Source: a virus
Taxonomy: Duplodnaviria > Heunggongvirae > Uroviricota > Caudoviricetes
Strand: one strand, 5' to 3'
Virus record (IMG/VR): IMGVR_UViG_2541047783_000005
DNA: 45,972 nt
The notes under the pieces are model-generated. The model was not told the origin of the DNA. It did not search any database and was given only the letters and a program-made list of their open reading frames with translations. Each line of letters starts with the position of its first letter. Position 1 is the first letter of the stretch. Positions 1 to 14,762 of this stretch are shown in pieces. Both the position numbers and the translations under genes were made by a program.

Positions 1-19
1 CTATTTGATAAATATTAAA

Positions 20-1300
20 TTAATTTTTCATTGCTTCGTTATGGGGCATGGTTGGGGCAAACTCGCTTAACTGTGTATTTAACAAAGCTACCTGTGCATT
101 ATTGTTTTCAGACATCCATTTTCCGTATACCTGAAATACCATTTGCGCATCTGCATGGCCCATCTGGTTTGCTATAAATGCCGGGTTAGCACCAGCTGTC
201 AGCGACCAGCAGGCATAAGTATGTCTCGACTGATATGATTTTCGATGGCGGAGTCCGGCACGTTTTATCGCTGCGTCCCACATCTGCCTTATTGAGTCAA
301 CGGTAAAATGGTCACCATAATTTTTTACTCTCGCTGACACTTCAGGTTGAAAAACAAAGGTGCATTTTTGTTTTTCTGTTCTGCCATACTCTCTGAGGTG
401 AACATCAATGATATGCTCTTTGCTCAGTCTCGTTAATGTCATCTGACTCCGGAGAGCGTCGATTGCTGGCTTAATAAGATGAATGACCCGATTGGTTCCC
501 GCCTGTGTTTTTGGTACCGTGAAACGGTCTTTTGCTAAATTTCTCCTGATCATCATTGTTCCATTTTTCAGATCTATGTCCTCCCATCCAAGTGCACACA
601 GCTCACCAGGGCGAACGCCAGTATAAACAGAAACACACCATAAATTTTTGGCTTGCTGATTTCTGCACGCATCGATAAGACGGATGAATTCCTCCCGCGA
701 AAGAGGATCCGGAATGGTTCTTGATTCCTTTAATGGCGAGATCCCCTTAAACGGGTTATCTACCAGGTAACCGTTATCAACACCAAACTGGAACACGGCG
801 TTAAGATTTGTCATGTAATTATTTACAGTTACAGCCGATCTCCCTGGTTGTGTAACAATATAGTTACTTTTGGGGATCTGGTATCCAGTCAGTAGCTCTT
901 TACGAACCTCCAGTAATTTTTCTTTATTAATCGATGAGGCAAGATTTTTTTCACCGATTATGCTCAGGATATTTTTGATGACGGCACGGTATGTGTTGAG
1001 TGATGTTTTTGCGACTTCAGTTTCTTTCAGTGCCAGAAATTTTTCAGCCAGTTCTTTTATGGTTAAATCTTGTCGGGCCTCACCAAATTTTTCCAGATTG
1101 CGTGAGGAGGGAAACTGTTTTGCATAGTCGAAAACACCAGTTTTTATTGCGTAACAAACAGAGGCGCGTAGCTCACCTGCAACGCGCCTGTTTTTTGCTG
1201 TGTCAGGAACCCCCAGGTTTTCCCTGACTCTTACGCCTTTATAAACAAACCAGATACGTAATTTCCCTCCATGGTTTTCCACGCCTGTCGGATATTTCAT
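20..1300 (-). CDS. int: Tyrosine-type phage integrase
   Basis: ORF 20..1315 minus; C-terminal region carries the R...HxxR...Y catalytic pattern typical of tyrosine recombinases; sits at the prophage edge pointing outward. Start taken at internal Met (MKYPTG). Confidence 0.85.
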   Translation of the reverse strand: MKYPTGVENHGGKLRIWFVYKGVRVRENLGVPDTAKNRRVAGELRASVCYAIKTGVFDYAKQFPSSRNLEKFGEARQDLTIKELAEKFLALKETEVAKTSLNTYRAVIKNILSIIGEKNLASSINKEKLLEVRKELLTGYQIPKSNYIVTQPGRSAVTVNNYMTNLNAVFQFGVDNGYLVDNPFKGISPLKESRTIPDPLSREEFIRLIDACRNQQAKNLWCVSVYTGVRPGELCALGWEDIDLKNGTMMIRRNLAKDRFTVPKTQAGTNRVIHLIKPAIDALRSQMTLTRLSKEHIIDVHLREYGRTEKQKCTFVFQPEVSARVKNYGDHFTVDSIRQMWDAAIKRAGLRHRKSYQSRHTYACWSLTAGANPAFIANQMGHADAQMVFQVYGKWMSENNNAQVALLNTQLSEFAPTMPHNEAMKN

Positions 1301-1334
1301 TTCAACTTCTCTCATTAGTTAGTGTGGCTTTTAG

Positions 1335-1586
1335 TCAAGTAAGATGACGTCTTGGTCTTGCTGATGCCTGGCGCTCAATCCAGCGATCAATTTCTTCCAG
1401 GTTGTAAAAGCATGGACTGTTATCCCATGGCATACCGTCATGAGCGACATGCTTATATTCCCTTCCTTCCATAAACGATTTTTCCCGGGCCTTTTTTAAC
1501 GTACCTTTTTTTATTCCTTTCAGCGCAATTAACTGCTCTTCGGATACCCATTTGCCGGGAGAGACAATCATGATTACTTCGCTCAT
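1335..1586 (-). CDS. xis: Putative excisionase / small DNA-binding protein
   Basis: 83-aa basic ORF immediately upstream of and co-oriented with int; assignment by position and size only. Confidence 0.5.
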   Translation of the reverse strand: MSEVIMIVSPGKWVSEEQLIALKGIKKGTLKKAREKSFMEGREYKHVAHDGMPWDNSPCFYNLEEIDRWIERQASARPRRHLT

Positions 1587-1658
1587 CGATTTCTTTATCT
1601 CTTATATTAGACGAGCGCCGGTTGCAGAATACCAGTCACAACCGGCGACAGTTGAACA

Positions 1659-4130
1659 TTAAGAATCAGCCTGACTCGGGATCAGTTTTTGCCAGATAAC
1701 TGAAACGTATTTTGCCTGGTAACGGGCGTCATCAAGTGCATTATGGCGCTCACCTTCGAATTGAATAGCCGTTCTGGCATCGAAGTCTATGGCTTTCCCC
1801 AGCTCAACGATTGTGCGTACATCGCGATCGTTGTAGTAACGCCACGGGCAGGGGATCCCCTGCCGTTCGTATGAACGGCGCAAAATCGTGTTGTCGAAGT
1901 TGGCTCCATTTCCCCAGACCTGAACAAAAAATTCACCGGAGTTTTCGTCGATAAATTCCCGCAATTGTAACAGTGCATCATCTAACGGGATTTCATCGGT
2001 CATAATGGCAGATTGCGCTTCGCGTGATTGCTTAAACCACCATTTAATGGTGTCCCGATCAATGACTCCGCCAGCAGTTTCCAGATCGATAGTCTTAATA
2101 AATTCCGGTCCCATATCTCCGGTTTGCGGATCGAAAAATATTGCACCTATTGAGATGATCGGGGCATCAGGATTTTTTCCCATGGTTTCAAGGTCGATCA
2201 TTAGATGGTCACACGTCCTGCTGGTGGATGTGATTTCGTGATGACCGTTCACCTTAATTGAGTGATCTGCCGTCTCGCCAGTTTCATTATCGCTATCGTG
2301 ATGCTGATTGCCGCCAGTGTTCTCCTTGTGTGGATGTTCAGCGCCTTCCATTTTCTCCGGATCATCTTCCTGAACTTCAACCTGATACTCTTCATCGAAT
2401 GTTTCCTGGTATGTTGCGTCGCCCATTACCGCGCCACAATCAGGGCAGTTGCCGCCGCCGGTCTGACCGCAGGCGGTGCAGACTTTTTCCACTTCCTGTT
2501 GCGCCACTGATTCAGGCTGTTTCGTTTCTGGCTCGTTTTGTAACGCATTTGGGCTGTTTTGTTCCGCTTTTTGGTAGTTCCGTTCCGATTCATGCTGGTT
2601 CTGGTTCACAGAATCGCGGGTCTGGATCCCCTTAACCCATTTCGGATCATTCGGGTCACTAATCCCTTCAACAAATTCACCACGTGATGCAGCAAGCAAC
2701 TTATCGGCGTCAGGCTGGATGATATTGGCTGCCTGCATAATTTTGTTTACTTCGTCAGCGGTAACTTTTATCGGCTCTGGTTGTTCTGAATCTTCAGCGG
2801 TATCTACATTTTGCGGTAAGCCCGTGTATGTGCCATTTTTTCGGGCAAAATATTCTTCTTTTGTGATTTCAGTGGCGCCAGCAGCCAGTGCCTTATCCAG
2901 ACCAGAAAGTTTGTTTGCGCGACCGTATTTTTCTCCGTCCTTATCTGCGAAGAGGAAATAGAACGGCCCCTCACGCTCTACAGATGGTTCAGCTTCCGGC
3001 GCGGTTTCATTTTTTGGGATATCAGATACCTCAGTTTCCACTGCATCAGTTTGTGTTTCTGATGACTGGAGAACATCAACAGTGCCCAGGTCTGTTTCTT
3101 CATTCTCAAACACGCCCTTTGTCGTCAGGTATTCGCAGATATATTTGTTCAGTGCTACGGGATCTTTGTGAATGTCGATCGGACGTTCACGGACAAGGCC
3201 AAAAATAGTTTGGCGGTCGTAGCGAAGGGCATCAGGCTGTTTGCGCATTGATGCCGAGATACGCTTCCAGTCTTCGCGGTCGTTATCGATAACTTCATTT
3301 TTTGCCCAGCGATGGATGCTGCCGTCAATGTTTCCGGCATCCACATCACCAGGCCAGAGAGCGTAGGCCAGTTCGTCATCCAGTGTTTTCCATGTCTGCT
3401 TGTATTCGCGATGAATGGCAGCAATGACCGGGCTGATTTTTCCTGTTGAATTTTCAGTGTACTGTTGATTGGCTCTGGCGCGGGCGAGATCAACAACAGA
3501 CGTGTATTTTCCGGTTTCCTTGCGTTCACCTTCGCGACGTTTTTTCCAGATGCGCATCTCTGCCTGAATTTCGGGCCATTTAGCACCAGGAATACATTTA
3601 TGCTTAACCCACCCAATGGCGTGCAACTTAAGCTCCGGATACATGGCGTTAACTTCTGGCATTTTCATCAACGCTTCAACGATATGTCCGTCGAATGTTG
3701 CCATGTCTTCCTGCAACAATTCCTGTGCGCTAATAACCATATCAACGGTGATGTTTTCACATGTGTCGAACTTAACCATGACAGCGTTCTGTACTTCAGG
3801 GGCCAGCTTGTCAAAAGTGACGTTCATCGGATCGGATTCAGTCTCAACCGGGACAAAAGAAGCAGACTCCTCATCCCAGCGGTTTTCCTGCATATATTCA
3901 GCATCCCATGAATCGAGGGCAGGGCGGGGTATGCCAGGTTTATCCTCGCAGACAATAAATTTATAAGCGCAGTCCTGAGCAGCCGGATAATGTTCCAGGA
4001 ATTGCCAGTGAAATTTTGCTCGAGCACGGCGTTCGTCGCCAGCTTCAATGGCTGTGGCTACAGCCACAGCGCCTTCTTCCCTTGTTGCCAGTTCGTCAGG
4101 AATAGCGGCGCAAATAAAGACTTTACTCAT
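1659..4130 (-). CDS. Large phage exonuclease (823 aa) with C-terminal DEDDh (DnaQ-like) 3'-5' exonuclease domain
   Basis: C-terminal 190 aa show the three exonuclease motifs (MIDLETMG; WGNGANFDNTIL; HNALDDARYQAKY). N-terminal ~600 aa are acidic and of unclear function, with a CxxC...CxxC cluster (CTACGQTGGGNCPDCGA). Sits where ydfE lies in K-12 Qin. Confidence 0.7.
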   Translation of the reverse strand: MSKVFICAAIPDELATREEGAVAVATAIEAGDERRARAKFHWQFLEHYPAAQDCAYKFIVCEDKPGIPRPALDSWDAEYMQENRWDEESASFVPVETESDPMNVTFDKLAPEVQNAVMVKFDTCENITVDMVISAQELLQEDMATFDGHIVEALMKMPEVNAMYPELKLHAIGWVKHKCIPGAKWPEIQAEMRIWKKRREGERKETGKYTSVVDLARARANQQYTENSTGKISPVIAAIHREYKQTWKTLDDELAYALWPGDVDAGNIDGSIHRWAKNEVIDNDREDWKRISASMRKQPDALRYDRQTIFGLVRERPIDIHKDPVALNKYICEYLTTKGVFENEETDLGTVDVLQSSETQTDAVETEVSDIPKNETAPEAEPSVEREGPFYFLFADKDGEKYGRANKLSGLDKALAAGATEITKEEYFARKNGTYTGLPQNVDTAEDSEQPEPIKVTADEVNKIMQAANIIQPDADKLLAASRGEFVEGISDPNDPKWVKGIQTRDSVNQNQHESERNYQKAEQNSPNALQNEPETKQPESVAQQEVEKVCTACGQTGGGNCPDCGAVMGDATYQETFDEEYQVEVQEDDPEKMEGAEHPHKENTGGNQHHDSDNETGETADHSIKVNGHHEITSTSRTCDHLMIDLETMGKNPDAPIISIGAIFFDPQTGDMGPEFIKTIDLETAGGVIDRDTIKWWFKQSREAQSAIMTDEIPLDDALLQLREFIDENSGEFFVQVWGNGANFDNTILRRSYERQGIPCPWRYYNDRDVRTIVELGKAIDFDARTAIQFEGERHNALDDARYQAKYVSVIWQKLIPSQADS

Positions 4131-4223
4131 TTTGTTTTAACCTCATGACAGATTTAAGGATGAACAAATCCCTGCCATTGCTGGCATATAAGAATGAAAC
4201 CGGATATTTATTACGGAACTGTT

Positions 4224-4415
4224 TTAAAGACCTGCCGGGATTTCGATATTATACTGGTGAATAACTTTATCGACCGGGTAACAGTTACCGGGAATTTTCT
4301 GTTCGGTTGCTGCAGTCATACACTCCTGCATTGTCCTGTGAACACTGACTGCAATATCAACTGGCTCTCCGGAAACAAGAAAAACTGTCAGAACAAGCGC
4401 AAATGCTGAATTCAT
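4224..4415 (-). CDS. ydfD: YdfD-like small protein (63 aa)
   Basis: Internal start of ORF 4224..4469 gives MNSAFALVLTVFLVSGEPVD..., matching my recollection of Qin YdfD; start overlaps the dicB stop. Confidence 0.65.
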   Translation of the reverse strand: MNSAFALVLTVFLVSGEPVDIAVSVHRTMQECMTAATEQKIPGNCYPVDKVIHQYNIEIPAGL

Positions 4416-4600
4416 TGTGCACATCCTTTTGGCATCAGACGTAAACGAGCCAGCATTGAAACAATGCATATTTTATTTAATAGCTCCCGTTCTTGTTTTC
4501 TCTTGTTAATGGCATCTTCAGTAAATACAGGGTTACTGATAGTGACACCAATTTCAAAACAACCTTCAGACGTATTAACGTTTGGTAATAACGTTTTCAT
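4412..4600 (-). CDS. dicB: DicB cell-division inhibitor (62 aa)
   Basis: Internal Met of ORF 4412..4705 gives MKTLLPNVNTSEGCFEIGVTISNPVFTED...MPKGCAQ, which I recognise as DicB; lies directly downstream of dicF as in Qin. Confidence 0.7.
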   Translation of the reverse strand: MKTLLPNVNTSEGCFEIGVTISNPVFTEDAINKRKQERELLNKICIVSMLARLRLMPKGCAQ

Positions 4601-4769
4601 TATCGCGTCCTCAACAATGAATTTTGTGATGCAGTGCCTGGTGCCTCCAGGTGACGTTAACCAGTTAACAATTAACGCCGGATACAGAGAATCCACCCAT
4701 AACACTGTTTTTGGTTTTAACTGTTCCGCGTGCGCTTAGCCGCATTCACCGCATCACAAAATTCACTTT

Positions 4770-4827
4770 AAAAACGGCGGCAGAGCAGTCACGGAGTAAA
4801 ACTGATACCGCCAAACGTCACCAGAAA
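4770..4827 (-). ncRNA. dicF: DicF small RNA (ftsZ-targeting), with 3' hairpin and U-tract
   Basis: Minus-strand sequence UUUCUGGUGACGUUUGGCGGUAUCAGUUUUACUCCGUGACUGCUCUGCCGCCGUUUUU matches the DicF sequence as I remember it; located between ydfBC and dicB. Confidence 0.65.
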
Positions 4828-5086
4828 ATTGATAACAGAGGGCGTTGCAGCGGGGTTGTCGCTTAAGCGTATGGTCAACCTGACAACTCGGTGTCCTCAA
4901 CGGGGAAGGAATAACCCCGCCATACTTACCGCCGCGCCATTTCGCGGGTTGCCACAACCGGAAGCGCACGGTCGAATTAAATTTGACGACACCGTACAGT
5001 GAGACGAACTTCGCCGTGCGCTTTCGTGTTGTGTGCCTGCTTTTAACCACGTCAGGCGAGGTGGTATCCTTAAAATCACCACAGTT

Positions 5087-5662
5087 TTAAGGATTCATTA
5101 AGCAATGTCGCAACCACCAATAAATCCGCTTAAGAACATGAAAATTGATTACTGGTATAAAGCGCTTACAGTTGTTGGCGCTGCGTTGTTTGTCTTTAAT
5201 GGAACGTCTTTTTTTGACAGATATCCCGTTGTTCCATTGGTTTTTTTGTCCTCCGGCATCTTTTTTATTGGTTTGGGGGAGTGGATTAATCACCCTCTCA
5301 AAGTGAGATTTATTGGTCCTGGAGTTTGGACTCGTGGATATAATCGTTCTTCGTGCGCACTCGGTATCATCTTCGACATACTTGGTTGTTTCCTGATTGT
5401 TACAGGAGTCGTCAAGTTCTTCTGATGTAAAACCGCAAATGGGGCACGTAACGGGAATTTTGAAAAGCGTTTCTCCGGGTTCCAGAACAAAATTTTCTGC
5501 GGTCTGATTTTGCTTCTCATATTTGTGCTCCGCGTCATTGTGAGAGCGCATTCTTATTCTGAGTGCCTGTTTAAACTCACTGAAGCTGAGAGCTTCTTCG
5601 CCTTCGGCAAGGCCTTCGAAGTATTCTTCGTAAGCCTTTTCCATGATTGTGTCGAAATCCAT
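5087..5662 (-). CDS. YdfB/YdfC-like protein with CPICGF zinc-ribbon motif; 3' extent uncertain
   Basis: Internal start MDFDTIMEKAYEEYFEG... from ORF 5087..5704. The C-terminal third is Lys/Asn-rich and low-complexity and overlaps an antisense membrane-protein ORF. Confidence 0.4.
   Translation of the reverse strand: MDFDTIMEKAYEEYFEGLAEGEEALSFSEFKQALRIRMRSHNDAEHKYEKQNQTAENFVLEPGETLFKIPVTCPICGFTSEELDDSCNNQETTKYVEDDTECARRTIISTSPNSRTNKSHFERVINPLPQTNKKDAGGQKNQWNNGISVKKRRSIKDKQRSANNCKRFIPVINFHVLKRIYWWLRHCLMNP
5105..5425 (+). CDS. Possible small membrane protein (106 aa, about 3 TM segments), antisense to the ydfBC tail
   Basis: Hydrophobic segments (ALTVVGAALFVF; VVPLVFLSSGIFFIGLG; ALGIIFDILGCFLIVTGV); AAGGA-like RBS about 9 nt upstream of the ATG. 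Confidence 0.3.
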   Translation: MSQPPINPLKNMKIDYWYKALTVVGAALFVFNGTSFFDRYPVVPLVFLSSGIFFIGLGEWINHPLKVRFIGPGVWTRGYNRSSCALGIIFDILGCFLIVTGVVKFF

Positions 5663-5663
5663 A

Positions 5664-5819
5664 TCACTCACCTGAGTTTCTTTCCAGCCAGCGACGGGCA
5701 CCATTTTCGGTTTTAAACGTTTTGCTTTTGGTATACGTCATTGCGGTGAACGTGCCGTCCTGGTTTGGAAACACGCCGTACACCAGAGATTCGTTGTTGC
5801 CAAGATCGATAGTATCCAT
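5664..5819 (-). CDS. ydfA: YdfA-like protein (51 aa)
   Basis: Internal start gives MDTIDLGNNESLVYGVFPNQDGTFTAMTYTKSKTFKTENGARRWLERNSGE; first gene of the dicB operon. Confidence 0.6.
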   Translation of the reverse strand: MDTIDLGNNESLVYGVFPNQDGTFTAMTYTKSKTFKTENGARRWLERNSGE

Positions 5820-6011
5820 GCTGACCTCATTTCCCCTTAACGCCGGGGTAGCGGAACTGTTTGCTGAGAACACCGTGCGGTGTGTTGATGGAGGTAATTT
5901 AGTTTTCTCATTATTTTTCGTCAAGGCTTTTTGATGAGAAAACTCAAGTATTGGCGCAAGATAAAGCCAATACATTGAAATGTAAGGCTTTAAAATTTTG
6001 TGAAGGGATGA

Positions 6012-6419
6012 TTATTGATGCTTGTTGCGTTTGCGAGCCTCTAATAGCTCGGTGAACAGGCGATTAAAATTCTCAACGCGGGCGCGGAGTTCGCTGAGTT
6101 GTGCTTGTTGCTCTGATTTAGGAAGTGCGCGATACAAACGCAGCATCTCTAACTCATCTTCCGATAAGTCTAAGGCACTATCGAGTGAAACAGGGGGAGC
6201 TGGTGTTTTGTCCTCGTCGCCAAACAGTATCCAGGTTGGTGAACATTGCAATACCTCGGCGAGGCGATGCAAATTTTGCCCGCGCGGGGCTGTATGGTCA
6301 CTTTCCCATAATGAAATTGATGAGCCAGATACGCCAGCAGCTTTGCTTAAACCGTTTTGACTTAAACCTACCTGCTTACGTCTTTCTCTAATGCGTTGAC
6401 CTAAAGTTTTCTCGTTCAT
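6012..6419 (-). CDS. dicA: DicA-like HTH (XRE-family) repressor, no peptidase domain
   Basis: 135 aa from internal Met (MNEKTLGQRIRERRKQVGLSQ...); central LQCSPTWILFGDEDK motif; divergent from a Cro-like gene. Confidence 0.8.
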   Translation of the reverse strand: MNEKTLGQRIRERRKQVGLSQNGLSKAAGVSGSSISLWESDHTAPRGQNLHRLAEVLQCSPTWILFGDEDKTPAPPVSLDSALDLSEDELEMLRLYRALPKSEQQAQLSELRARVENFNRLFTELLEARKRNKHQ

Positions 6420-6496
6420 ATTTAGATATCTTAATAACCCTTGACTTGAGATTCCTTGAGTGATTAGCATTGAGAAAACTCAATACTGGAGGTGCG
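6420..6496. promoter_or_regulatory. dicA/dicC divergent promoter-operator region
   Basis: 77-bp intergenic region with TTGACT at 6441-6446, repeated TTGAG pentamers, perfect palindrome ATTGAGAAAACTCAAT at 6469-6484, and GGAGG RBS before dicC. Confidence 0.55.
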
Positions 6497-6724
6497 ATGT
6501 TTAAATCAGACGTAATTAATTTTTACGGTACGAAAGCCAAAGTAGCGAAAGCTGCTGGCGTTGACCCATCTGCTGTTTCTCAATGGCAAGAGCTGGTTCC
6601 TGAAGGTCGCGCGATGCGTCTACAGGAGGCATCTGGCGGCGAGCTTCTGTATGATCCCAAGGTTTATGACGAATATCGTAAGACGAAGCGGGCGGGGCGG
6701 TTGAACAATGAAAATCACTCCTGA
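6497..6724 (+). CDS. dicC: DicC / Cro-like small regulator
   Basis: Internal start MFKSDVINFYGTKAKVAKAAG...; C-terminus ...EGRAMRLQEASGGEL.YDPKVYDEYRKTKRAGRLNNENHS resembles DicC. Confidence 0.75.
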   Translation: MFKSDVINFYGTKAKVAKAAGVDPSAVSQWQELVPEGRAMRLQEASGGELLYDPKVYDEYRKTKRAGRLNNENHS

Positions 6725-7229
6725 ACAGGCTCGTGAGGCTCTGGATGCCTGGATATGTCGACCAGGAATGACACAGGAGCAGGCGACGATATTAATCACT
6801 GAAGCATTCTGGGCTTTGAAAGAGCGCCCGAACATCGATGTTCAGCGTGTCACAGATGAAGGTGGCGCGGTTGATCAGCGAGCGCTTGGCGTTAATCGAG
6901 TGAAGATATTCGAACGCTGGAAGGCTATCGACACCAGGGATAAGCGTGAAAAGTTCACGGCGCTAGTGCCTGCAATTATGGAGGCTATCCGGATTAATGA
7001 TTTCAGGTTGTATCGTGAAATTAGTGACGGAAAAAGCATCACGTACATGATCGCCGGGTTAAACAAAGAATATGGCGATGTGGTGGAGTCCGGACTGCTT
7101 TTTGCTGATCCTGCCGTAGTGGATCGTGAAACTGACGAACTTATAGAAAAAGCAATTGCTTTCAAACTTGCGTATCGACAGCAATACCAACAAAAAGCTG
7201 GATGGAATTATGAGCCTTCTTTTTGCTGA
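6708..7229 (+). CDS. Hypothetical early-operon protein (173 aa)
   Basis: ORF overlaps the dicC stop and the downstream start; no motif I can assign. Confidence 0.45.
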   Translation: MKITPEQAREALDAWICRPGMTQEQATILITEAFWALKERPNIDVQRVTDEGGAVDQRALGVNRVKIFERWKAIDTRDKREKFTALVPAIMEAIRINDFRLYREISDGKSITYMIAGLNKEYGDVVESGLLFADPAVVDRETDELIEKAIAFKLAYRQQYQQKAGWNYEPSFC

Positions 7230-8175
7230 ACGCCCACTGGTTATAAACACACAGCTTGCGATGAAGATTGGCTTAAATGAAGCCATTGTGTTGCAGCAGT
7301 TGCATTACTGGTTGAGAGATACCAATTCCGGCATGGAATGTGATGGTGTTCGCTGGATTTACAACACAACGGAACAATGGCTGGAACAGTTCCCATTCTG
7401 GTCAGAGTCAACGTTAAAGCGCGCGTTTGCAAGTCTGAAAACGCTGGGGCTTTTGCGTTGTGAAAAGCTCAATAAATCAAAGCGCGATATGACCAATTTC
7501 TACACGATTAACTATGGAAGCGAGCTTTTAGATGATGGCAAATTGAGCGAATCCATCGGTTCAAAATGCGCCGCTCCATCAGGTCAAAATGACACGATGG
7601 AAGAGGTCAAAATGAAACGCTCCATTGGTTCAAAACGACCCAATGTCATCGGGTCAAAATGGCCCGATGATCCTACAGAGAATACAACAGAGATTACTAC
7701 AGAGAATAAAAACACTTTTCGTCCGGAAGCTTCGCAACCGGACCCGCAGACGGCTGAACAGGATTTTTTAATCCGGCACCCTGGCGCAGTTGTGTTTAGT
7801 GCGAAAAAACGCCAGTGGGGTAGCCAGGAGGATCTGGCGTGTGCGCAGTGGATATGGGGGCGGATCGTGGGTCTCTACGAACAGGCCGCCAGTGATGATG
7901 GCGAGATCATGCGACCAAAAGAGCCTAACTGGACTGTCTGGGCCAATGATGTGCGCACAATGCGGATGCTGGATGGCAGAAGCCACAGACAAATTTGTGA
8001 AATGTTTGGTCGGGTACAGCGGGATCCATTCTGGGTAAAAAACATCATGAGCCCGTCAAAGCTCCGCGAAAAATGGGACGAACTGGTCATCCGCCTGGGG
8101 CGTTCACCTGTACAGCGTTGTGTTAATCATATTTCTGAACCGGATACAGAAATTCCGCCTGGTTTCAGAGGATAA
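7210..8175 (+). CDS. Putative replication initiator (O-like), origin iterons embedded in the gene
   Basis: N-terminal winged-helix-like segment (LAMKIGLNEAIVLQQLHYWL); five IGSK-type peptide repeats that correspond to DNA iterons; position downstream of cro-like gene. Start taken at ATG 7210. Confidence 0.6.
   Translation: MSLLFAERPLVINTQLAMKIGLNEAIVLQQLHYWLRDTNSGMECDGVRWIYNTTEQWLEQFPFWSESTLKRAFASLKTLGLLRCEKLNKSKRDMTNFYTINYGSELLDDGKLSESIGSKCAAPSGQNDTMEEVKMKRSIGSKRPNVIGSKWPDDPTENTTEITTENKNTFRPEASQPDPQTAEQDFLIRHPGAVVFSAKKRQWGSQEDLACAQWIWGRIVGLYEQAASDDGEIMRPKEPNWTVWANDVRTMRMLDGRSHRQICEMFGRVQRDPFWVKNIMSPSKLREKWDELVIRLGRSPVQRCVNHISEPDTEIPPGFRG
7559..7663 (+). repeat. Five direct iterons (GGTYCAAAAYG) at 22-26 bp spacing, followed by an A-rich tract; candidate phage origin
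   Basis: Copies at 7559, 7583, 7606, 7628, 7654; then ACAGAGA-type A-rich repeats at 7675-7720. Confidence 0.6.
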
Positions 8176-8215
8176 GTTTTGATTTCAGGTCATGAGGTAA
8201 TTTTAAGGGGGACTT

Positions 8216-8617
8216 GTGGCAAAAGTTTTTACACAAGAAGAGCGGGAAAAAATTAAAGGGCAGGTGGTGGAACTCGTGCGCCAGAGCGGTCGTGAGACGT
8301 TACGGCAACTGGAAGCTAAAACAGGTGCGACTAGATATCTGATGAGCGTTCTTGCCAGAGAGCTGGTAGCCAGTGGCGATGTATACAACTCCGGCTACGG
8401 GTTATTCCCGTCTGAACAGGCGCGTAAGGACTGGCAAAACGCCCGCAAAAAACTCTCGAGGGCAAAGGTGAAGAAAACAGCTGTGGTTGATCCGGACCTT
8501 ATCTGGTCGTTACCTGATGGAGAAATACGTCGCTACGACAGTCGCCTAAACATAATCTGTCGCGAGTGCCGGATGAGTGAAGTTATGCAGCGCATACTGG
8601 CATTTTATCAGGGATAA
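8216..8617 (+). CDS. Hypothetical protein (133 aa), GTG start
   Basis: ORF with strong AAGGGGGA RBS just upstream; no recognisable motif. Confidence 0.45.
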   Translation: MAKVFTQEEREKIKGQVVELVRQSGRETLRQLEAKTGATRYLMSVLARELVASGDVYNSGYGLFPSEQARKDWQNARKKLSRAKVKKTAVVDPDLIWSLPDGEIRRYDSRLNIICRECRMSEVMQRILAFYQG

Positions 8618-8835
8618 TGTTAGGTATTTTAGACGTTACTAGATTAAAAAGCATTAGTTCAGGAGTGAATTGACATTCTCATTTTTCATGGCACAGGGTA
8701 GATCTGGCGTGGTTGTCCGCTTTGTGCCAAAAGCGGACATCGAATAATTTCAGCAGCACTCAACCTTATTAACCAAATCGCCTCAACTCATATGGACATG
8801 CATCCGGAAGTGCCAACTTCGTAAACTTATTCACT

Positions 8836-10623
8836 TTAAGTCTGAGCCTCACTCTCTTGGCCATAAGTGGCTTGCCAGTATCTCGCCGTAGGGTTCATTA
8901 GAATGTGCAATACAAGCCACCATGCAAAAATGCAGGGAGGTTGATTGTAGTAACCGGCAGGCACATATCCGTGAGCTAGTTGATTTCGTAAATCACCATA
9001 GATTTTATCTACCAGTAAGGCCTGAAGATTGCCAATTATGTCTACGCCGAAAGCTTCAATAATCAGTGGATTATCTAGTAATCCCTTGAGTCCATTTCGC
9101 TCTTGCGAACCGTCCCCGTGAAGCTGCGATGGTTCCTCACCTTTAATTTTAGCCACATATCTCAGACTATTTTCGATCTGGGGAATCAACACGTGGCATG
9201 CCGTCATAAAATCTCCATTGAAACCGCAAACCATACCCTTGATGAAAAACTCTTCATGCCCAAACGGGATGAAGGGATGATTGATGAACATATCGCGAAA
9301 AAACGCCTCCGAGATTGGATATTTCATTGTGATCTCATCTGTAGCAGGAATAATTTGCCCAGCTACTGCCAACTCATGGTCGATACGCATTCTCGTCATC
9401 ATTATGGGCCAAATAACTGCCCCATTTGCATCATCAATCCCCAATCCTGCGGGTATGCGAGCAAGTGTCATTCCCTCATGATCAATATGTGTTGATCCAA
9501 ACATCCAAGCTATGCTGTTGGCCTTTTGTTCTATTGCTTGAGCCTTAAGTCTCTCAATGCTGGTTGGCCGACAGACCAGCATCGCAAGTCTGAAAACCAT
9601 ATCAAACATATCTCTTCCGACTACCCGACTCTTGGCTTGATGGACAATCTCACTAATATCTTGAGGGGGAGACTGAAGGATAGACATCTGGTGACGGGAT
9701 TCGATTTGGTAATCACGCATTTCTTCATACAGCGCAAGACGTTCTATTCGGGTTCCTGGAATATTAGCCAGTGCTTCAATAGCATTCTGCATGCAGGCTG
9801 CCGAAATCATACCGCCATCTTGGAATTTTGACTCTTCCAGATGTGTATCGGCAAGAAGCCGCCAGAATTCAAACTGTGTATCTCTGTCACAGCACCTATT
9901 CGCAATCGTGATTGCGGTTTTACAGGCATCGACGGCAAATGAAAATAATTTTTGAGCCAGATAGTTTTTTGTCAGAAACAGGAGTTCCTGGGCAATAAAA
10001 GATGGCTCACTCACTTTACAGTCGATATCGAGTTGCAGGAGTCGCAGCGGATAAGGTGAATCGCCTTGTTCTCTGGTACGTTCATACTCTGCTAGTAGAT
10101 GTGCCGAAAGCTGATCAAATTCATCCCTGAAATCAGTATTCTTTCGAAAAAAACAACACAGCCTAAGCGCACGCTCTAGGCGTTCTAAAGCACTAACCCA
10201 CGTCCCTTGCGATGTCATAATAGCTATACTGGACGCATAATAAGCACGGACTGCCAGCAAAGGAAAACGGATTCCACCAATTTTACGAACCCAAAGTGTA
10301 TCAGCAATACGAGCTTGAAGTTCGGGTAGCTCTATCGTCGGGCAAAATTGAGAAAGTACCTCCAGCGACAACCCGTTAATGTCATCCGGAATTGCAGATC
10401 TACCTTGGCTGCTTTGAAAGCACGGACCAAATGGTACCTGTGGATTTTCGGGACGAAAGTGAAAACCGCAAATATGGGTTAGCAGTCTTATCTCCGCTCT
10501 TCCATCACCTAGGCTAGAAAGATACTTTGTGATATCAAAGCAGGTAACTGGCAGCTTACTCTGGATTAAGGGGGATAAATCAATAGTGTTAAGTTCGTCG
10601 AGGCTGATATTAATATCGTCCAT
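8836..10623 (-). CDS. 595-aa cargo protein with C-terminal HEPN-like Rx4HxY motif (candidate abortive-infection or defence RNase)
   Basis: Long uninterrupted minus-strand ORF opposing the flanking phage genes; AAGGTG RBS; C-terminal GDLRNQLAHGY motif (encoded at about 8965-8997); no Walker A motif; region looks AT-richer than the structural genes. Confidence 0.7.
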   Translation of the reverse strand: MDDINISLDELNTIDLSPLIQSKLPVTCFDITKYLSSLGDGRAEIRLLTHICGFHFRPENPQVPFGPCFQSSQGRSAIPDDINGLSLEVLSQFCPTIELPELQARIADTLWVRKIGGIRFPLLAVRAYYASSIAIMTSQGTWVSALERLERALRLCCFFRKNTDFRDEFDQLSAHLLAEYERTREQGDSPYPLRLLQLDIDCKVSEPSFIAQELLFLTKNYLAQKLFSFAVDACKTAITIANRCCDRDTQFEFWRLLADTHLEESKFQDGGMISAACMQNAIEALANIPGTRIERLALYEEMRDYQIESRHQMSILQSPPQDISEIVHQAKSRVVGRDMFDMVFRLAMLVCRPTSIERLKAQAIEQKANSIAWMFGSTHIDHEGMTLARIPAGLGIDDANGAVIWPIMMTRMRIDHELAVAGQIIPATDEITMKYPISEAFFRDMFINHPFIPFGHEEFFIKGMVCGFNGDFMTACHVLIPQIENSLRYVAKIKGEEPSQLHGDGSQERNGLKGLLDNPLIIEAFGVDIIGNLQALLVDKIYGDLRNQLAHGYVPAGYYNQPPCIFAWWLVLHILMNPTARYWQATYGQESEAQT

Positions 10624-11297
10624 GTCGTCACCTTGATGATTTGTTAATGCGGGGGCAACATTAATAAATGTACTTGAGACCGCAATTTGTCGATGGAGCC
10701 AACATTTATAACTATGTGCTTCTACCCTCTGAATTTTTACATGTGAATTGCTAGCTTGAATAGCTCTATCATTATATACGTGGCACTAAATTATGGCTGT
10801 TTTTCGCTCAAAGCGGACTAGAAGGTTAGCTTGTGTCGGACTTTGCGTATTAAAAGAAGTGCTGGTGGTGACTAGTGGTTGTGCCCCATTTCCACAGAAA
10901 AAATCAGAGAAACTATACCCAATAGTTGTATTGAATCACTGACGAGACAGCCTCATATTCATCAGGACTGGTCTACGTCCAATACAGGAGGTTGTGGTGC
11001 TGGTTCTCAAATGTGCGCTGGCTATTACGGCTGTAATGGCGATTTATTGTCTTGCTATTGTTCTTATGGATCGCCTTTCTGACTGATTTCATATTGGCGA
11101 GGTAACGGTAGTTAAGTAGAATGGCTGCGGGTGCTTGAGGCTATCTGCCTCGGGCATGAACACCAAAGGCAGATAGAGAAAAGCCCCAGTTAACATTACG
11201 CGTCCTGCAAGACGCTTAACATTAATCTGAGGCCAATTTCATGCTAGACACATGTAGGTTAGCCTCTTACGAGCCGAAAGGCAAGGAGAAGCAGGCT

Positions 11298-11453
11298 ATG
11301 AAGCAGCAAAAGGCGATGTTAATCGCCCTGATCGTCATCTGTTTAACCGTCATAGTGACGGCACTGGTAACGAGGAAAGACCTCTGCGAGGTACGAATCC
11401 GAACCGGCCAGACGGAGGTCGCTGTCTTCACAGCTTACGAACCTGAGGAGTAA
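11298..11453 (+). CDS. hokD: Hok-family membrane toxin
   Basis: MKQQKAMLIALIVICLTVIVTALVTRKDLCEVRIRTGQTEVAVFTAYEPEE with AAGGAGAA RBS; structured upstream leader (inverted repeat CTATCTGCC...GGCAGATAG near 11142-11180). Confidence 0.8.
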   Translation: MKQQKAMLIALIVICLTVIVTALVTRKDLCEVRIRTGQTEVAVFTAYEPEE

Positions 11454-11669
11454 GAGACCCGGCGAGGGAGAAATCCCTCGCCACCTCTGATGTGGCAGGC
11501 ATCCTCAACGCACCCGCACTTAACCCGCTTCGGCGGGTTTTTGTTTTTATTTTCAACGCGTTTGAAGATCTGGACGGTGCCGGAATAGAATCAAAAATAC
11601 TTAAGTAGCGCGCAGGGATAAGAGGGATGGTCCCTTAAAGGGGAGAGCTAATTATCCGGAAGGATTCTG

Positions 11670-11921
11670 ATGATGAACATCGAAGAACTGCGTAAAATTT
11701 TTTGTGAAGATGGCCTCTATGCTGTGTGCGTTGAAAATGGAAATCTTGTTAGTCATTACCGCATTATGTGTTTGCGAAAGAATGGGGCTGCGTTAATTAA
11801 TTTTGTGGATGCTCGGGTCACGGACGGATTTATCTTGCGCGAAGGTGAGTTTGTCACTTCATTACAGGCATTGAAAGAGATCGGAATAAAAGCTGGCTTT
11901 TCTGCTTTTGCAGAAGAATAA
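11670..11921 (+). CDS. rem: Rem-like hypothetical protein (83 aa)
   Basis: Position directly after hokD and size match Qin rem; identity from synteny only. Confidence 0.5.
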   Translation: MMNIEELRKIFCEDGLYAVCVENGNLVSHYRIMCLRKNGAALINFVDARVTDGFILREGEFVTSLQALKEIGIKAGFSAFAEE

Positions 11922-11987
11922 ACTCATCTACAATCTTGCGCGGGGCTGAACTCCCGCTGAGTAACACCGTGCCACCGGAGAAAACCG

Positions 11988-12918
11988 ATGGCACGCAACG
12001 TAAAATATTACAATTCTGATAATTCGCCCGTTCTTGCCTGCACGCACGGGCGGTATTCTCACGCATTCAAGTCTGAATGGTTCCAGCACCCTCCATGCAC
12101 TGCAGAACAGGCCGAATGGCTGATTCATTCTTACCGCAGGCGCGGGTTCGAGGTTAAGAAAGCTCTCAGTCTCGACTATCGGCACTGGATAATCTCTGTC
12201 AGGCTGCCTTATTCCGAACGCCCACCACGTGCGTCCCGCACTTTCCAGCAACGGATCTGGAGGTAACGTGCGGGTATTACTTAGACCTGTTCTGGTGCCT
12301 GAGCTTGGGCTGGTGGTCCTTAAGCCGGGCCGTGAATCCATACAGATATTTCATAATCCTCGAGTGCTGGTGGAACCGGAACCAAAAAGCATGCGAAATC
12401 TGCCATCCGGAGTCGTTCCTGCCGTTCGCCAGCCGCTGGCAGAAGACAAAACATTGCTGCCGTTTTTTAGTAACGAACGGGTGATTCGTGCTACTGGCGG
12501 CGTTGGCGCATTGTCTGACTGGCTATTACGTCATGTTACATCCTGCCAGTGGCCTAATGGCGATTACCATCACACTGAAACAGTCATTCACCGTTATGGT
12601 ACCGGCGCAATGGTGTTGTGCTGGCACTGCGACAACCAACTGCGTGACCAGACATCGGAATCACTGGAGCTGCTTGCTCAACAAAATCTGACAGCATGGG
12701 TGATTGACGTCATCCGTCACGCAATAAGCGGTACGCAGGAGCGGGAATTATCTTTGGCTGAATTATCCTGGTGGGCGGTCTGCAATCAGGTGGTGGATGC
12801 ACTACCTGAGGCTGTATCGCGTCGTTCGCTGGGATTACCAGCGGAAAAAATCTGCTCGGTGTACCGCGAAAGCGACATCGTACTATTACTCCCCAAAATC
12901 TCCAAAATTGAGCGATGA
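11988..12918 (+). pseudogene. ydfU: YdfU-like gene split across two frames (possible frameshift)
   Basis: ORFs 11988..12266 and 12229..12918 overlap in different frames; second part contains a CWHCDNQ cysteine motif. Confidence 0.4.
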
Positions 12919-13612
12919 CGCTCCAGCGACAGGCACCGGTTGTTTAACAATTACGGATGTAATGGCAGCGCAGGGGATGGTGCAGTCGAAAGCACCACTT
13001 GGGTTGGCCTTATTTCTGGCAAAAGTTGGTGTTCAGGACCCTCAGTTTGCGATTGAAGGCCTGCTAAATTACGCGATGGCACTGGATAACCCGACATTGA
13101 ACAAATTGAGTGAAGAAATCCGGTTACAGATTATTCCTTACCTTGTGAATTTTGCCTTTGCTGATTACTCCAGGTCTGCGGCAAGTAAGGCTCGCTGTGA
13201 GCATTGTTCAGGTACGGGATTTTATAATGTATTGCGCGAAGTGGTGAAACACTACAGACGCGGGGAATCTGTAATCAAGGAAGAATGGGTGAAGGAACTA
13301 TGTCAGCATTGCCATGGTAAGGGCGAAGTCAGCACAGCGTGCAGAGGGTGTAAGGGTAAAGGGATTGTTCTGGATGAAAAAAGAACCCGGTTTCATGGCG
13401 TACCGGTATATAAGATTTGTGGGCGTTGTAATGGAAACCGATTTAGTCGTTTACCGACCACGCTGGCACGACGTCATGTCCAGAAGCTGGTACCAGACCT
13501 GACCGATTATCAGTGGTATAAGGGGTATGCGGACGTCATTGATAAACTGGTAACAAAGTGCTGGCAGGAAGAAGCATACGCGGAAGCGCAATTGAGGAAG
13601 GTGACGAGATAA
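12797..13612 (+). CDS. Q: Late-gene antiterminator Q (zinc-binding type)
   Basis: C-terminal CEHC...CQHCHGKGE...CRGCKGKG...CGRCNG cysteine clusters; followed by promoter and terminator. True start may be the internal ATG at 12962. Confidence 0.65.
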   Translation: MHYLRLYRVVRWDYQRKKSARCTAKATSYYYSPKSPKLSDDAPATGTGCLTITDVMAAQGMVQSKAPLGLALFLAKVGVQDPQFAIEGLLNYAMALDNPTLNKLSEEIRLQIIPYLVNFAFADYSRSAASKARCEHCSGTGFYNVLREVVKHYRRGESVIKEEWVKELCQHCHGKGEVSTACRGCKGKGIVLDEKRTRFHGVPVYKICGRCNGNRFSRLPTTLARRHVQKLVPDLTDYQWYKGYADVIDKLVTKCWQEEAYAEAQLRKVTR

Positions 13613-13643
13613 ATGATTTTTGCTGAAGATGGCGACATGATGT

Positions 13644-13672
13644 TTGCATTTTTCAAAAAATATGGATAAAAT
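13644..13672 (+). promoter_or_regulatory. Candidate late promoter pR' (TTGCAT -35, 17-bp spacer, TAAAAT -10)
   Basis: Hexamers read directly at 13644-13649 and 13667-13672, about 30 bp downstream of the Q stop. Confidence 0.45.
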
Positions 13673-13718
13673 TTTTTCAACGATGGGCTTTGTATACCCG
13701 ACGTTAAGAAAAAGTAGA

Positions 13719-13748
13719 AAACCCGCTGATGAGCGGGTTTTGTGCTTT
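13719..13748 (+). terminator. Intrinsic terminator (candidate tR')
   Basis: Hairpin ACCCGCT-GATG-AGCGGGT followed by TTTTGTGCTTT. Confidence 0.55.
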
Positions 13749-14033
13749 AAATGGGGCAATGGTAATGTTGAATCTCATCCCGGGACTCATGTCTGTTAAC
13801 TTATTATTTAGCTGGTGACTTGGTTATTTGCCTGATGTTTAAAATATTTTCTTCCAGTACAATGTCCCTAAACACAATGAGTCTGCTTATTATATTATTA
13901 GCAGAGCTATTACGGCCAAAGTACAGCATAAGCTTTTAAAGCCAATCAACCAGTCATCAAGACAGACGGGGTTATTCATAAAAACTCTCCATGTGTGATC
14001 CGATGGGGCCTGAAATTAAAGCTTTAATATAGC

Positions 14034-14246
14034 TCATGAAAGGTAAACATTGGCAGCTGAAGGGCCACGCAGACCATTTATCCGGCAAAATTCCACGCGT
14101 AATCCGGTGGTAATTTCTTCTGCATCGCGGAGATTGAGCGCTGAAACATGAAGCTGGACATCGATACGACCATCGGATGGGGTGATAAGACCCTTGCCGC
14201 TTTTGCCGTCAAAGGTTTTGACAATTCCTGTCATTTTACGGGACAA
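14034..14246 (-). CDS. cspF: Cold-shock protein family, CspF/CspH-like
   Basis: [26 protein letters not shown]...; apparent non-ATG (TTG) start. Confidence 0.85.
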
Positions 14247-14546
14247 AAAAATTCCTTAATACTGATAACTTGGCGCACTATACACACGTTCCTGAAGAAA
14301 GCTATAGTTTTTTGATGGGGTTGAAGATGGCTGGATGTCTAAAATAAACATTGCTTCATATGTTCAACTATGCGTTAATGATTGCGTCGGTTTGAAGAAC
14401 AGACGATATACGAAGTAGTTTACTAAAGCAGTTCTCATTTCAGGTGTTATTCACTTATTCCTTCTTTGAGTCTCTCCAATTAAGTACGAAGTCGTTTCTG
14501 TTATGCAAACCATTTATGCCGAAAGGCTCAAGTTAAGGAATGTAGA

Positions 14547-14762
14547 ATGTCAAATAAAATGACTGGTTTAGTAAAATGGTTTAACGCTGATAAAGGTTTC
14601 GGCTTTATTTCTCCTGTTGATGGTAGTAAAGATGTGTTTGTGCATTTTTCTGCGATTCAGAATGATAATTATCGAACCTTATTTGAAGGTCAAAAGGTTA
14701 CCTTCTCTATAGAGAGTGGTGCTAAAGGTCCTGCAGCAGCAAATGTCATCATTACTGATTAA
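14547..14762 (+). CDS. cspB: Cold-shock protein CspB-like
   Basis: [38 protein letters not shown]... with RNP motifs; long 5' leader. Confidence 0.9.

Follow-up and report, generated by a model that had tools for sequence, protein, structure and literature searches.

Organization of the dicF-dicB cassette in a Qin-type prophage

The stretch of DNA analysed here (the window; 45,972 nucleotides of IMG/VR record IMGVR_UViG_2541047783_000005) carries ydfA, dicF, dicB and ydfD in a cassette that extends exactly from the stop codon of ydfD (position 4224) to the start codon of ydfA (position 5819), together with a 191-aa ORF and an opposed 106-aa gene (Table 1). All cassette genes are encoded on the minus strand, as a previous sequence-only reading of this DNA had proposed for DicF and DicB, and a σ70-like promoter and a DicA-like repressor gene lie upstream of them. 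The ydfD gene, whose product is a lysis protein in K-12, overlaps the dicB stop codon by 4 nt, the same arrangement as in K-12. The DicB profile match spans residues 1 to 62 of 62 (136.8 bits against a threshold of 27), and the assignment of this protein in that reading, like that of DicF, proved genuine. DicB works with MinC and ManYZ (PMC6832061), and the protein encoded here, being identical to the characterised K-12 protein, would be expected to cause a MinC/ZipA-dependent block of cell division. Further downstream, this leftward operon also includes the full-length exonuclease gene.

The cassette belongs to a Qin-type lambdoid prophage of about 44.7 kb that occupies the site of K-12 Qin itself, between rspB and ydfJ', with flanks (rspB ... 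ydfJ') common to K-12 and the CP023142 region. Insertion between rspB and a 5'-truncated ydfJ, together with an IntQ-type integrase, places it among the Qin-site prophages, in agreement with the Qin integration site described at ydfJ (PMC6379469). Gene names were taken from the PGAP annotation of CP023142, a reference copy 100% identical to the window, in which int/xis, immunity, replication, Q, lysis, terminase, portal, capsid and tail modules are annotated with zero pseudogene flags; in the window itself no long ORF is broken. The 11-mer TTATGGATTTC flanks the prophage on both sides in CP023142; the attL core lies 18–28 nt before position 1 of the window. Furthermore, in the isolated temperate phage HannyBb (PP925841) the two prophage ends are joined through the TTATGGATTTC core, as attP would predict.

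Table 1. Features of the prophage discussed in the text, with positions in the window
Feature	Position	Strand	Basis or remark
Integrase	20-1315 (PGAP start 1300)	-	PGAP annotation of CP023142 region
Excisionase	1335-1586	-	PGAP annotation of CP023142 region
Exonuclease, full length, 823 aa	1659-4130	-	phrog_2082; Pfam Rv2179c-like
ydfD, 63 aa, DUF1482	4224-4415	-	Pfam PF07358, 90 bits; 61/63 identical to K-12
dicB, cell-division inhibitor, 62 aa	4412-4600	-	Pfam PF05358; 62/62 aa identical to K-12
DicF sRNA gene, 53 nt, terminator hairpin included	4775-4827	-	Rfam RF00039; U-run 4770-4774
Untranslated precursor region upstream of DicF	4828-5044	-	Common to K-12; inside 98.2% blastn block 3364-5044
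Putative promoter-like block of 106-aa gene	5043-5070	+	TTAACC, 16-nt spacer, TGgTATCCT (extended -10)
Mosaic segment, 517 bp	5045-5561		Stands in for K-12 ydfB 3' end and ydfC
191-aa ORF	5087-5662	-	YdfB N-terminus (~35 aa), F-x-IP-x-x-CPICGF block, antisense tail
RBS of 106-aa gene, AAGGA	5089-5093	+	Sequence
Conserved membrane-protein gene (moron), 106 aa	5105-5425	+	60 homologs; runs against dicBF operon
ydfA, 51 aa, DUF1391, first early-left operon gene	5664-5819	-	Pfam PF07151, 98.5 bits; 51/51 identical to K-12
Predicted dicBp-equivalent (PL-type) promoter, TTGACG-17-TAAATT	5924-5896	-	σ70-like, promoter scan
Two operator-like palindromes flanking/overlapping the PL-type promoter	5898-5911, 5934-5947	-	TTGAG-N4-CTCAA matches
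DicA-like repressor, 135 aa, HTH_3, without S24 peptidase domain	6012-6419	-	Pfam HTH_3, 56.9 bits
Three operator-like palindromes, OR-type	6421-6483		Divergent repressor/cro intergenic region; matches at 6421, 6446, 6470
DicC-like Cro, 75 aa	6497-6724	+	Pfam P22_Cro, 59.3 bits
rem, 83 aa	11670-11921	+	81/83 identical to K-12 Rem
ydfT (Q-type antiterminator), without RBS and first 8 codons	12797-13612	+	Deletion junction 12883/12884
attR core TTATGGATTTC	44687-44697		At truncated 5' end of ydfJ

Conservation of the DicF sRNA

The Rfam model of DicF (RF00039) matched positions 4775-4826 of the minus strand over its full length (model positions 1–52), scoring 72.5 bits where the gathering threshold is 48, with an E-value of 3.5e-14. 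In the alignment to K-12 Qin, DicF was identical to b1574 at 52 of 53 nucleotides, the sole change being a C to G substitution at nucleotide 53, a position left unpaired in the self-fold and the predicted ftsZ duplex alike. A C at this position is otherwise strongly conserved in the Rfam consensus, and the G found here represents a departure from it. The 3' region of DicF pairs with ftsZ, a pairing that has been mapped experimentally (PMC5069750), and the duplex predicted with RNAduplex against K-12 ftsZ (-40 to +20) showed the same pairing pattern as in K-12 (-34.2 versus -33.8 kcal/mol). Since the ftsZ-pairing nucleotides are unchanged, a DicF diverging at these nucleotides, the result that the sequence-only reading had held would refute it, was rejected.

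The terminator hairpin (GGCGGUA...UGCCGCC, followed by G-UUUUU) has a predicted energy of -16.6 kcal/mol (-15.9 in K-12); it was established by folding, its loop being beyond the limit of the terminator scan, which passed over it. The spacer between dicF and dicB comprises 174 nt, the same as in K-12, and the upstream precursor region, which by analogy with K-12 may participate in RNase E/III processing, is near-identical to its K-12 counterpart from about position 4978 downward. Moreover, the 380 nt covering DicF and its flanks are 98–99% identical to K-12, a level of conservation that fits constraint.

Immunity region and control of the leftward promoter

The sequence-only reading located the cassette downstream of a dicA-repressed promoter. 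A promoter and a DicA-like repressor gene are indeed present, but the repressor is only 56% identical to K-12 DicA and the operators differ. The N-terminal HTH half of the repressor is divergent and its C-terminal half is better kept; likewise, the Cro protein is 71% identical to K-12 DicC, with divergence over its N-terminal 32 residues. The PL-type promoter aligns in position with TTGACC...TAATCT of K-12, although the neighbouring sequence differs; promoter and operator DNA cannot be aligned with K-12, and the repressor/cro intergenic region bears no resemblance to it. The motif TTGAG-N4-CTCAA was matched 15 times across the window, with 5 of these matches in two intergenic stretches of about 60 bp, and the palindrome at 6470 is the only perfect match in the window. 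Immunity of the K-12 DicA/DicC specificity was therefore not found at this locus. The divergent repressor and the different operators make heteroimmunity to K-12 Qin probable, and the phage is a mosaic relative rather than a literal ancestor.

In K-12, Rem acts as the DicA antirepressor; the operon is repressed by DicA and derepressed by Rem, and its transcript is processed by RNase III/E (PMC10448788). With different operators and a repressor that shares only 56% identity with DicA, control by the near-identical Rem is an extrapolation here. The LexA core CTGT-N8-ACAG had no match across the whole window, leaving SOS control unsupported.

A conserved gene opposed to the operon in the ydfC slot

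The cassette had been described as containing ydfBC, a description that did not hold. YdfC is absent from the locus (the best local alignment, between YdfC and a local ORF, reached 6/35 identities), and of YdfB only about the first 35 residues are kept, fused to the 191-aa ORF (35/41 identities, at the N-terminus only). The K-12 arrangement of ydfC plus a separate 42-aa ydfB was thus not found; in its place lies a 517-bp segment that gave no blastn match in K-12 Qin. The combination of this segment with the same immunity type was found in 328 complete E. coli genomes and also in HannyBb.

Two opposed frames cross the segment. The tail of the 191-aa ORF, labelled as a hypothetical protein by PGAP in CP023142 (WP_000344958) and as phrog_35040, is the codon-aligned antisense of the plus-strand 106-aa gene. 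The homologs of the 106-aa protein, among them proteins from Yersinia, Herminiimonas and Reinekea, share DYWYKA and G-x-GEW-x-NHP motifs that do not vary, and in other prophages the gene adjoins CI-type repressors. An AlphaFold2 model (pLDDT 82.9) predicts three helices and a beta-hairpin. The protein had no matches in Pfam, PHROG or PADLOC, and Foldseek searches against BFVD and PDB returned nothing at E ≤ 0.001. The block preceding the gene is nearly invariant at five loci whose proteins are just 51–88% identical, which suggests that it serves as the promoter of the gene.

The plus-strand ORF as an artefact was rejected, its motifs being invariant in unrelated taxa in which the minus frame is closed: free-standing relatives of the gene in other bacteria carry 3–17 stops in that frame. 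Conversely, none of the enterobacterial prophage copies examined, which span three deep lineages, has a stop in the minus frame anywhere along the gene, and the CPICGF block, which lies outside the plus-strand gene, shows synonymous third-position changes across three lineages, a substitution pattern typical of coding sequence on the minus strand. The 191-aa ORF as a plain artefact of the plus-strand gene is therefore not fully tenable. A true antiparallel overlapping gene pair would explain the open minus frame; so would selection that keeps ribosomes on the early-left transcript and thereby prevents termination across the antisense insert. We tentatively propose that the ydfC slot houses an uncharacterised, widely conserved membrane-protein gene with its own promoter, head-on to the toxic dicBF genes and with the opposite frame kept open, a possible arrangement in which the 106-aa protein would provide a lysogen-expressed function, e.g. 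superinfection exclusion.

Apart from the antisense gene in the ydfC slot, the locus has no unusual feature. PGAP calls the shadow-like 191-aa ORF and overlooks the conserved gene on the opposite strand.

A putative early division shut-off module

We consider it highly probable that the region from ydfD to ydfA is the part nearest the promoter in the early-left (PL-type) operon of a full-length Qin-type prophage and acts as a division shut-off module. Gene identities, sequence conservation, integration site and architecture were read directly from the DNA, and transcription, processing, repression and the division block are modelled on the K-12 literature. In the lysogen, the DicA-like repressor would bind the TTGAG-N4-CTCAA-type operators and keep the leftward promoter off. 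Derepression, by analogy with K-12, could occur through the Rem antirepressor or by spontaneous switching, and lifting of repression would yield a single transcript encoding ydfA, the YdfB-fusion ORF, dicF, dicB, ydfD, the exonuclease, xis and int. Processing by RNase E/III and the internal terminator would free the 53-nt DicF, whose 3' part would pair with the ftsZ ribosome-binding site and block FtsZ synthesis, while DicB together with MinC would dismantle Z rings; DicB may also block ManYZ-dependent entry of phage DNA. The cassette would therefore serve the phage as an early module for shutting off host division and correspond in function to lambda kil and Rac kilR.

A first competing explanation concerns the state of this particular copy. 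The description of the cassette as embedded in an otherwise complete prophage holds at the level of modules, but comparison with CP023142, K-12 and HannyBb shows that 471 bp spanning the ydfU/ydfT(Q) junction are missing. This deletion takes the last 145 codons of ydfU as well as the ydfT RBS and the first 8 ydfT codons, which makes the completeness of the prophage doubtful; the best start now left to the ydfT frame is an ATG at 12797, out of context within ydfU, which would bring in 29 foreign residues. A 70-nt query across the junction had no match in 5,426 complete E. coli genomes, and a 300-nt query matched other genomes only in two pieces. The copy could accordingly be a defective (cryptic) prophage in which Q-dependent late transcription (lysis, head, tail) is off and dicBF is retained as in K-12, an explanation to which we assign slightly less than an even chance. 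The absence of the 471 bp from this copy against all three references, the uniqueness of the junction and the displaced ydfT start argue for it. On the other hand, both Antiterm (PF03589) stretches of Q are kept and an in-frame ATG lies upstream, none of the 7 further differences from CP023142 closes a long ORF, and a deletion unique to the window, with no microhomology at its junction, could be an assembly or sequence artefact. The loss of the Q start may mean that the lytic cycle is never completed by this copy, and the early operon would be unaffected.

A second explanation, that the DicF-like sequence is a silent relic because the convergent plus-strand gene and promoter (5043-5425) hinder or terminate leftward transcription and no DicF or DicB is made, appears improbable. 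The gene and its promoter-like block, both conserved, do face the operon, and with a convergent gene between ydfA and dicF, read-through into dicF and dicB could be lowered or changed. However, the near-identity to K-12 around DicF is what constraint predicts, the viable phage HannyBb has the same layout, with exo, xis and int downstream of the convergent gene, and the open minus frame suggests that ribosomes and RNA polymerase traverse the segment. The early shut-off module remains the reading that we prefer.

Relation to K-12 Qin

K-12 Qin and the window share blocks that are 98–99.4% identical by blastn, including int, exo, dicF-dicB-ydfD, ydfA, hokD-to-ynfO and tfaQ-to-ydfK. The gene order of the K-12 dicBF operon (b1570-b1577; ydfA ... 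dicF-174 nt-dicB-ydfD-exonuclease), the divergent repressor/cro layout and Rem are alike in both. In contrast, window segments 1180-3363, 6988-11283 and 19135-41440 have no K-12 Qin counterpart; K-12 keeps ydfC where the window has ydfB fused to the foreign segment, and carries relBE, ydfV and flxA at the place taken in this phage by replication genes and a DUF4209 gene. None of the exonuclease, xis, int, replication, head and tail genes is missing from the window, which shows what K-12 Qin has lost: part of int (window 1-1179 is 99.07% identical to the intQ pseudogene by blastn), xis, the greater part of the exonuclease, the replication module, and terminase through tail fibre. K-12 ydfE is a fragment of the 823-aa exonuclease, with the K-12 match running only from 3364 onward, followed by IS2.

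The sequence-only reading saw here a candidate intact, ancestor-like form of K-12 Qin, a view partly borne out by the shared site, the modules and the near-identical blocks, and contradicted by the differing immunity, ydfC and replication regions. That the window preserves the literal ancestral state, from which K-12 Qin arose by deletions and an IS2 insertion alone, is very improbable and was rejected, since, despite the common att site and shared blocks, the divergent DicA, DicC N-terminus and operators, the replaced ydfC module and the exchange of replication and DUF4209 genes for relBE/ydfV/flxA are module swaps rather than deletions. As judged from the alignments, K-12 Qin is a mosaic that is related to such a phage and has suffered deletions and disruption by IS2, and it does not descend directly from it.

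Distribution and related systems

The same prophage was found in about 350 complete E. coli genomes. HannyBb is 98.9% identical to the window, gap-free, over positions 1-8613, carries the same cassette, DicF G53 variant, immunity region and att core, and departs from it in the moron region at 8614-10953 as well as in the tail-fibre/host-range region. This isolated phage is evidence that the prophage type is viable. Tritos (OV696610), with annotated DicF and DicB, and mEp460_ev081 (LR597641) and PhiR42_1 (PV340562), with dicBF, are further isolated temperate phages, in which just 62–68% of the cassette is covered. In all four phages, unlike the window, the ydfU-ydfT(Q) junction is intact. mEp460_ev081 has been reported as a functional phage with dicB, dicF, dicAC and rem (PMC10448788).

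Since free-living phages with the same genes are on record, the presence of dicF and dicB here is a correct but ordinary finding that is already known; dicBF operons in many prophages, and Qin-site prophages of 11–97 kb, have been published before. Its value is more that of a reference point than of a discovery, with the division-inhibition cassette counted among the ordinary early-left modules by which a live phage family shuts off its host. For annotators, ydfC is not universal in the dicBF operon, and the immunity specificity is unlike that of K-12. Lambda Kil and Rac KilR, small early products of PL-type operons whose genes lie between those for the repressor and for recombination/int, block FtsZ-ring function on induction. 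They share operon position and role with the cassette but no sequence relationship and, unlike them, the cassette would exert a dual inhibition, through an sRNA acting on ftsZ translation and a protein acting via MinC. The O157:H7 prophages with dicF copies (CP-933M/O/P, Sakai Sp) are set apart by their descriptions, which place them at other integration sites and report them as defective.

Retention of the division-inhibition cassette

The sequence-only reading had proposed that this prophage retains the division-inhibition cassette of Qin, the cryptic dicBF-bearing prophage of E. coli K-12. Database searches identified both DicF and DicB, and the limits proposed for the cassette, 4224-5819 on the minus strand, coincide exactly with the stop of ydfD and the start of ydfA. 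The 53-nt DicF (4775-4827) is identical to that of K-12 MG1655 at 52 of 53 positions, the sole change being the final base (C53 to G). This nucleotide pairs neither in the terminator hairpin predicted for the RNA (GGCGGUA...UGCCGCC; -16.6 kcal/mol vs -15.9 in K-12) nor in the duplex predicted with the K-12 ftsZ leader, a duplex that pairs in the same pattern as with K-12 DicF (-34.2 vs -33.8 kcal/mol). The ftsZ-pairing residues were mapped by mutation to the 3' region of DicF (PMC5069750), and all those published are the same in the window as in K-12. Thus, the divergence at pairing nucleotides that the sequence-only reading had named as evidence against itself was not found.

By analogy with K-12 work, from which each step is taken, the repressor would hold the leftward promoter off in a lysogen, and derepression would yield a single transcript spanning ydfA, the fusion ORF described below, dicF, dicB, ydfD, exonuclease, xis and int. 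Processing by RNase E/III, with the internal terminator, would free DicF, which would block ftsZ translation, and DicB would remove Z rings together with MinC and also stop ManYZ-dependent phage DNA entry. The cassette of a live phage would serve as an early host-division shut-off. Lambda kil and Rac kilR, division inhibitors of lambdoid early-left operons, are its counterparts in position and effect.

Aeromonas phage AP1 (MT713136, 254 kb) carries, near the end of its record, 247 nt that are 100% identical to the segment from DicF to the dicB start (4591-4837), and Actinobacillus phage vB_Apl-pPE4 shows an 88% match to 4616-4780; these could reflect contamination, chimeric assembly in those records, or real transfer. 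Additionally, in NZ_CP030768 and NZ_AP027563 the 2.4-kb cassette region is found in two pieces over 3.6 kb, and the annotation beneath the match includes an IS5 transposase, which indicates an IS5 insertion within the region in some strains.

Coordinates and supporting matches of features in the window
Feature	Coordinates	Strand	Remarks
ydfD	4224-4415	-	DUF1482; 61/63 identical to K-12
dicB	4412-4600	-	Pfam DicB, 136.8 bits; 62/62 identical to K-12
DicF RNA	4775-4826	-	Rfam, full-length, 72.5 bits (gathering score 48); whole window scanned
Promoter-like block	5043-5070		TTAACC-16 nt-TGgTATCCT, upstream of the 106-aa ORF
191-aa ORF	5087-5662	-	PGAP in CP023142: hypothetical protein
106-aa ORF	5105-5425	+	membrane protein
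ydfA	5664-5819	-	DUF1391; 51/51 identical to K-12
Two palindromes	5898-5947		around leftward promoter TTGACG-17-TAAATT
Three palindromes	6421-6483		between repressor and cro genes
DUF7380/DUF4209 gene	8836-10623	-	595 aa; PADLOC PDC-S39, 343 bits
sok antitoxin RNA	11129-11303	+	Rfam, 116 bits; upstream of hokD
cspA thermoregulator	14386-14778	+	Rfam, 158.8 bits
cspA thermoregulator	17289-17674	+	Rfam, 112.8 bits
tfaQ	42090-42665		tail-fibre-assembly gene
IS009	42433-42631	+	Rfam, full-length, 220.9 bits; within tfaQ
Core TTATGGATTTC (11 bp)	44687-44697		second copy 18-28 nt before position 1

An antisense gene in the ydfC slot

The assignment of ydfBC to the cassette did not hold. YdfC is absent (best local alignment, 6/35 identities), YdfB is represented by its first ~35 residues alone, which run on into the 191-aa ORF, and blastn found no K-12 Qin counterpart for 5045-5561. 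The slot holds instead a plus-strand gene for a 106-aa membrane protein, unannotated by PGAP in the identical region of E. coli CFSAN061770 (CP023142). The protein has 60 relatives in the database, among them proteins of Yersinia enterocolitica, Herminiimonas and Reinekea (34-58% identity); the motifs DYWYKA and G-x-GEW-x-NHP are invariant. Its AlphaFold2 model (pLDDT 82.9) comprises three helices and a beta-hairpin, and nothing matching was found in Pfam, PHROG, PADLOC, BFVD or PDB. In other enterobacterial prophages, the gene adjoins a CI-type repressor and points against the early-left operon, the PL-type leftward operon. Moreover, the promoter-like block upstream of it is nearly invariant in five loci whose proteins are just 51-88% identical. 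This conserved block, together with the occurrence of the same gene in other prophages, points to a separately transcribed moron.

The one unusual feature of the locus is that the minus-strand ORF spans the whole 106-aa gene, in the codon-aligned antisense frame. Such a frame stays open only if the plus-strand gene lacks TTA, CTA and TCA codons, and the five copies examined in enterobacterial prophages, which span three lineages at 51-58% protein identity, contain none of them. With the codon usage of the prophage itself, an open antisense frame has a chance of ~0.07-0.09 per lineage and ~6e-4 jointly. In five free-standing relatives from other bacteria this frame contains 3-17 stops; three of these five, similar in G+C content, have 3-6. 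Just beyond the plus-strand gene, a conserved F-x-IP-x-x-CP(I/V)CGF-x-S block is encoded in the minus frame. Its third codon positions show synonymous changes, and substitutions in the CPICGF block are of coding type; at two Rac-like loci, the open minus frame runs on into ydfC. Two hypotheses are proposed: either the ORFs are two genuine genes that overlap in antiparallel orientation, or the minus frame is held open for ribosome cover, which would keep the early-left transcript ribosome-coated across the inserted antisense gene.

Immunity region and relationship to K-12 Qin

The repressor shares only 56% identity with K-12 DicA, its helix-turn-helix half being divergent, the Cro protein shares 71% with DicC and diverges at the N-terminus, and the promoter/operator DNA cannot be aligned with that of K-12. 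The palindrome TTGAG-N4-CTCAA has 15 matches window-wide with up to 2 mismatches. Five of these, among them the only perfect match and the only one with a single mismatch, are grouped in the two places tabulated. Since these clustered palindromes bear no relation to the operator regions of K-12 DicA, they suggest that the phage differs from K-12 in immunity specificity. Rem is 81/83 identical to K-12 Rem, the DicA antirepressor. Because Pfam detected no S24 peptidase domain in the repressor and no LexA core box occurs anywhere in the window, prophage control would fit an antirepressor type rather than RecA cleavage.

Blastn aligned K-12 Qin to the window at 98-99.4% over 1-1179, 3364-5044, 5562-5890, 6596-6987, 11284-19134 and 41922-45972. 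Qin lacks 1180-3363 (3' part of int, xis and most of the exonuclease), where it carries IS2; 6988-11283 (replication region), where it carries ydfW, flxA, ydfV and relBE; and 19135-41440 (terminase to tail fibre). K-12 Qin therefore appears to be a decayed phage of this type, judging from these alignments. The divergent repressor, Cro and promoter/operator DNA rule it out as a deletion derivative of exactly this phage. The proposed ancestor-like form is supported by the shared blocks and flanks, but not as an exact ancestor.

The idea put forward by the sequence-only reading is correct in outline and already known, given the deposited phages and published dicBF reports. Of 5,426 complete E. 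coli genomes, 4,762 match the cassette region (4100-6500) in part or in full; 328 carry this exact version at >=80% coverage, and 348 hold >=80% of 1-25000 in one place. Matches to part of the cassette occur in sixty deposited phage genomes. HannyBb has the whole cassette at 98.9% identity, DicF with G53 included; the annotation of Tritos names both DicF and DicB; and mEp460_ev081 and PhiR42_1 have 62-68% of the cassette. The functional phage mEp460_ev081 carries dicB, dicF, dicAC and rem (Ragunathan et al. 2023, PMC10448788), and dicBF has been described in many prophages (Balasubramanian et al. 2016).

Completeness, integration site and accessory genes

The window is 100% identical to CP023142 over 1-12883 and differs at 7 positions over 12884-45972. 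The PGAP annotation of that region gives the following order: rspB; integrase, excisionase and an 823-aa exonuclease; the cassette (ydfD, dicB, 191-aa ORF, ydfA); HTH repressor and Cro; a replication region (YdaT-like protein, 321-aa protein, DUF977); the accessory genes DUF4209, hokD, rem and ydfU; ydfT (Q), csp genes, holin, lysozyme and Rz; DUF1441 small terminase, large terminase, portal and ClpP/capsid fusion; tail genes, J, Lom, tail fibre and tfaQ; pinQ and ydfK; and 5'-truncated ydfJ.

The prophage, described earlier as otherwise complete, is so at module level, but 471 bp present in CP023142, K-12 and HannyBb are missing between 12883 and 12884. With the deletion go the final 145 codons of ydfU (DUF968), the ribosome-binding site between the two genes and codons 1-8 of ydfT. 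Both Antiterm domains of this Q-type antiterminator are kept, with an out-of-context in-frame ATG at 12797. No microhomology was found at the junction, and a 70-nt junction query had no match in the 5,426 genomes. Since the ydfT start and ribosome-binding site are lost, late-gene activation may be impaired in this copy; alternatively, the deletion may be a sequence artefact.

K-12 Qin has exactly the same flanks, its insertion point being the 5' end of ydfJ (PMC6379469); prophages at this site range from 11 to 97 kb (Ramisetty and Sudhakari 2019, PMC6379469). The core TTATGGATTTC lies at both prophage ends, and in the isolated phage HannyBb the two ends meet through it, as attP would.

The PDC-S39 match is to a PADLOC candidate defence family, and the segment holding the gene (8614-10953) is missing in K-12 Qin and in HannyBb; on these grounds, the DUF4209 gene is a candidate prophage-borne defence moron. 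In K-12, relBE is inserted beside hokD, whereas the window prophage lacks it there. The two cspA-thermoregulator matches correspond to the leader and coding sequences of cspB and cspI in the late region.
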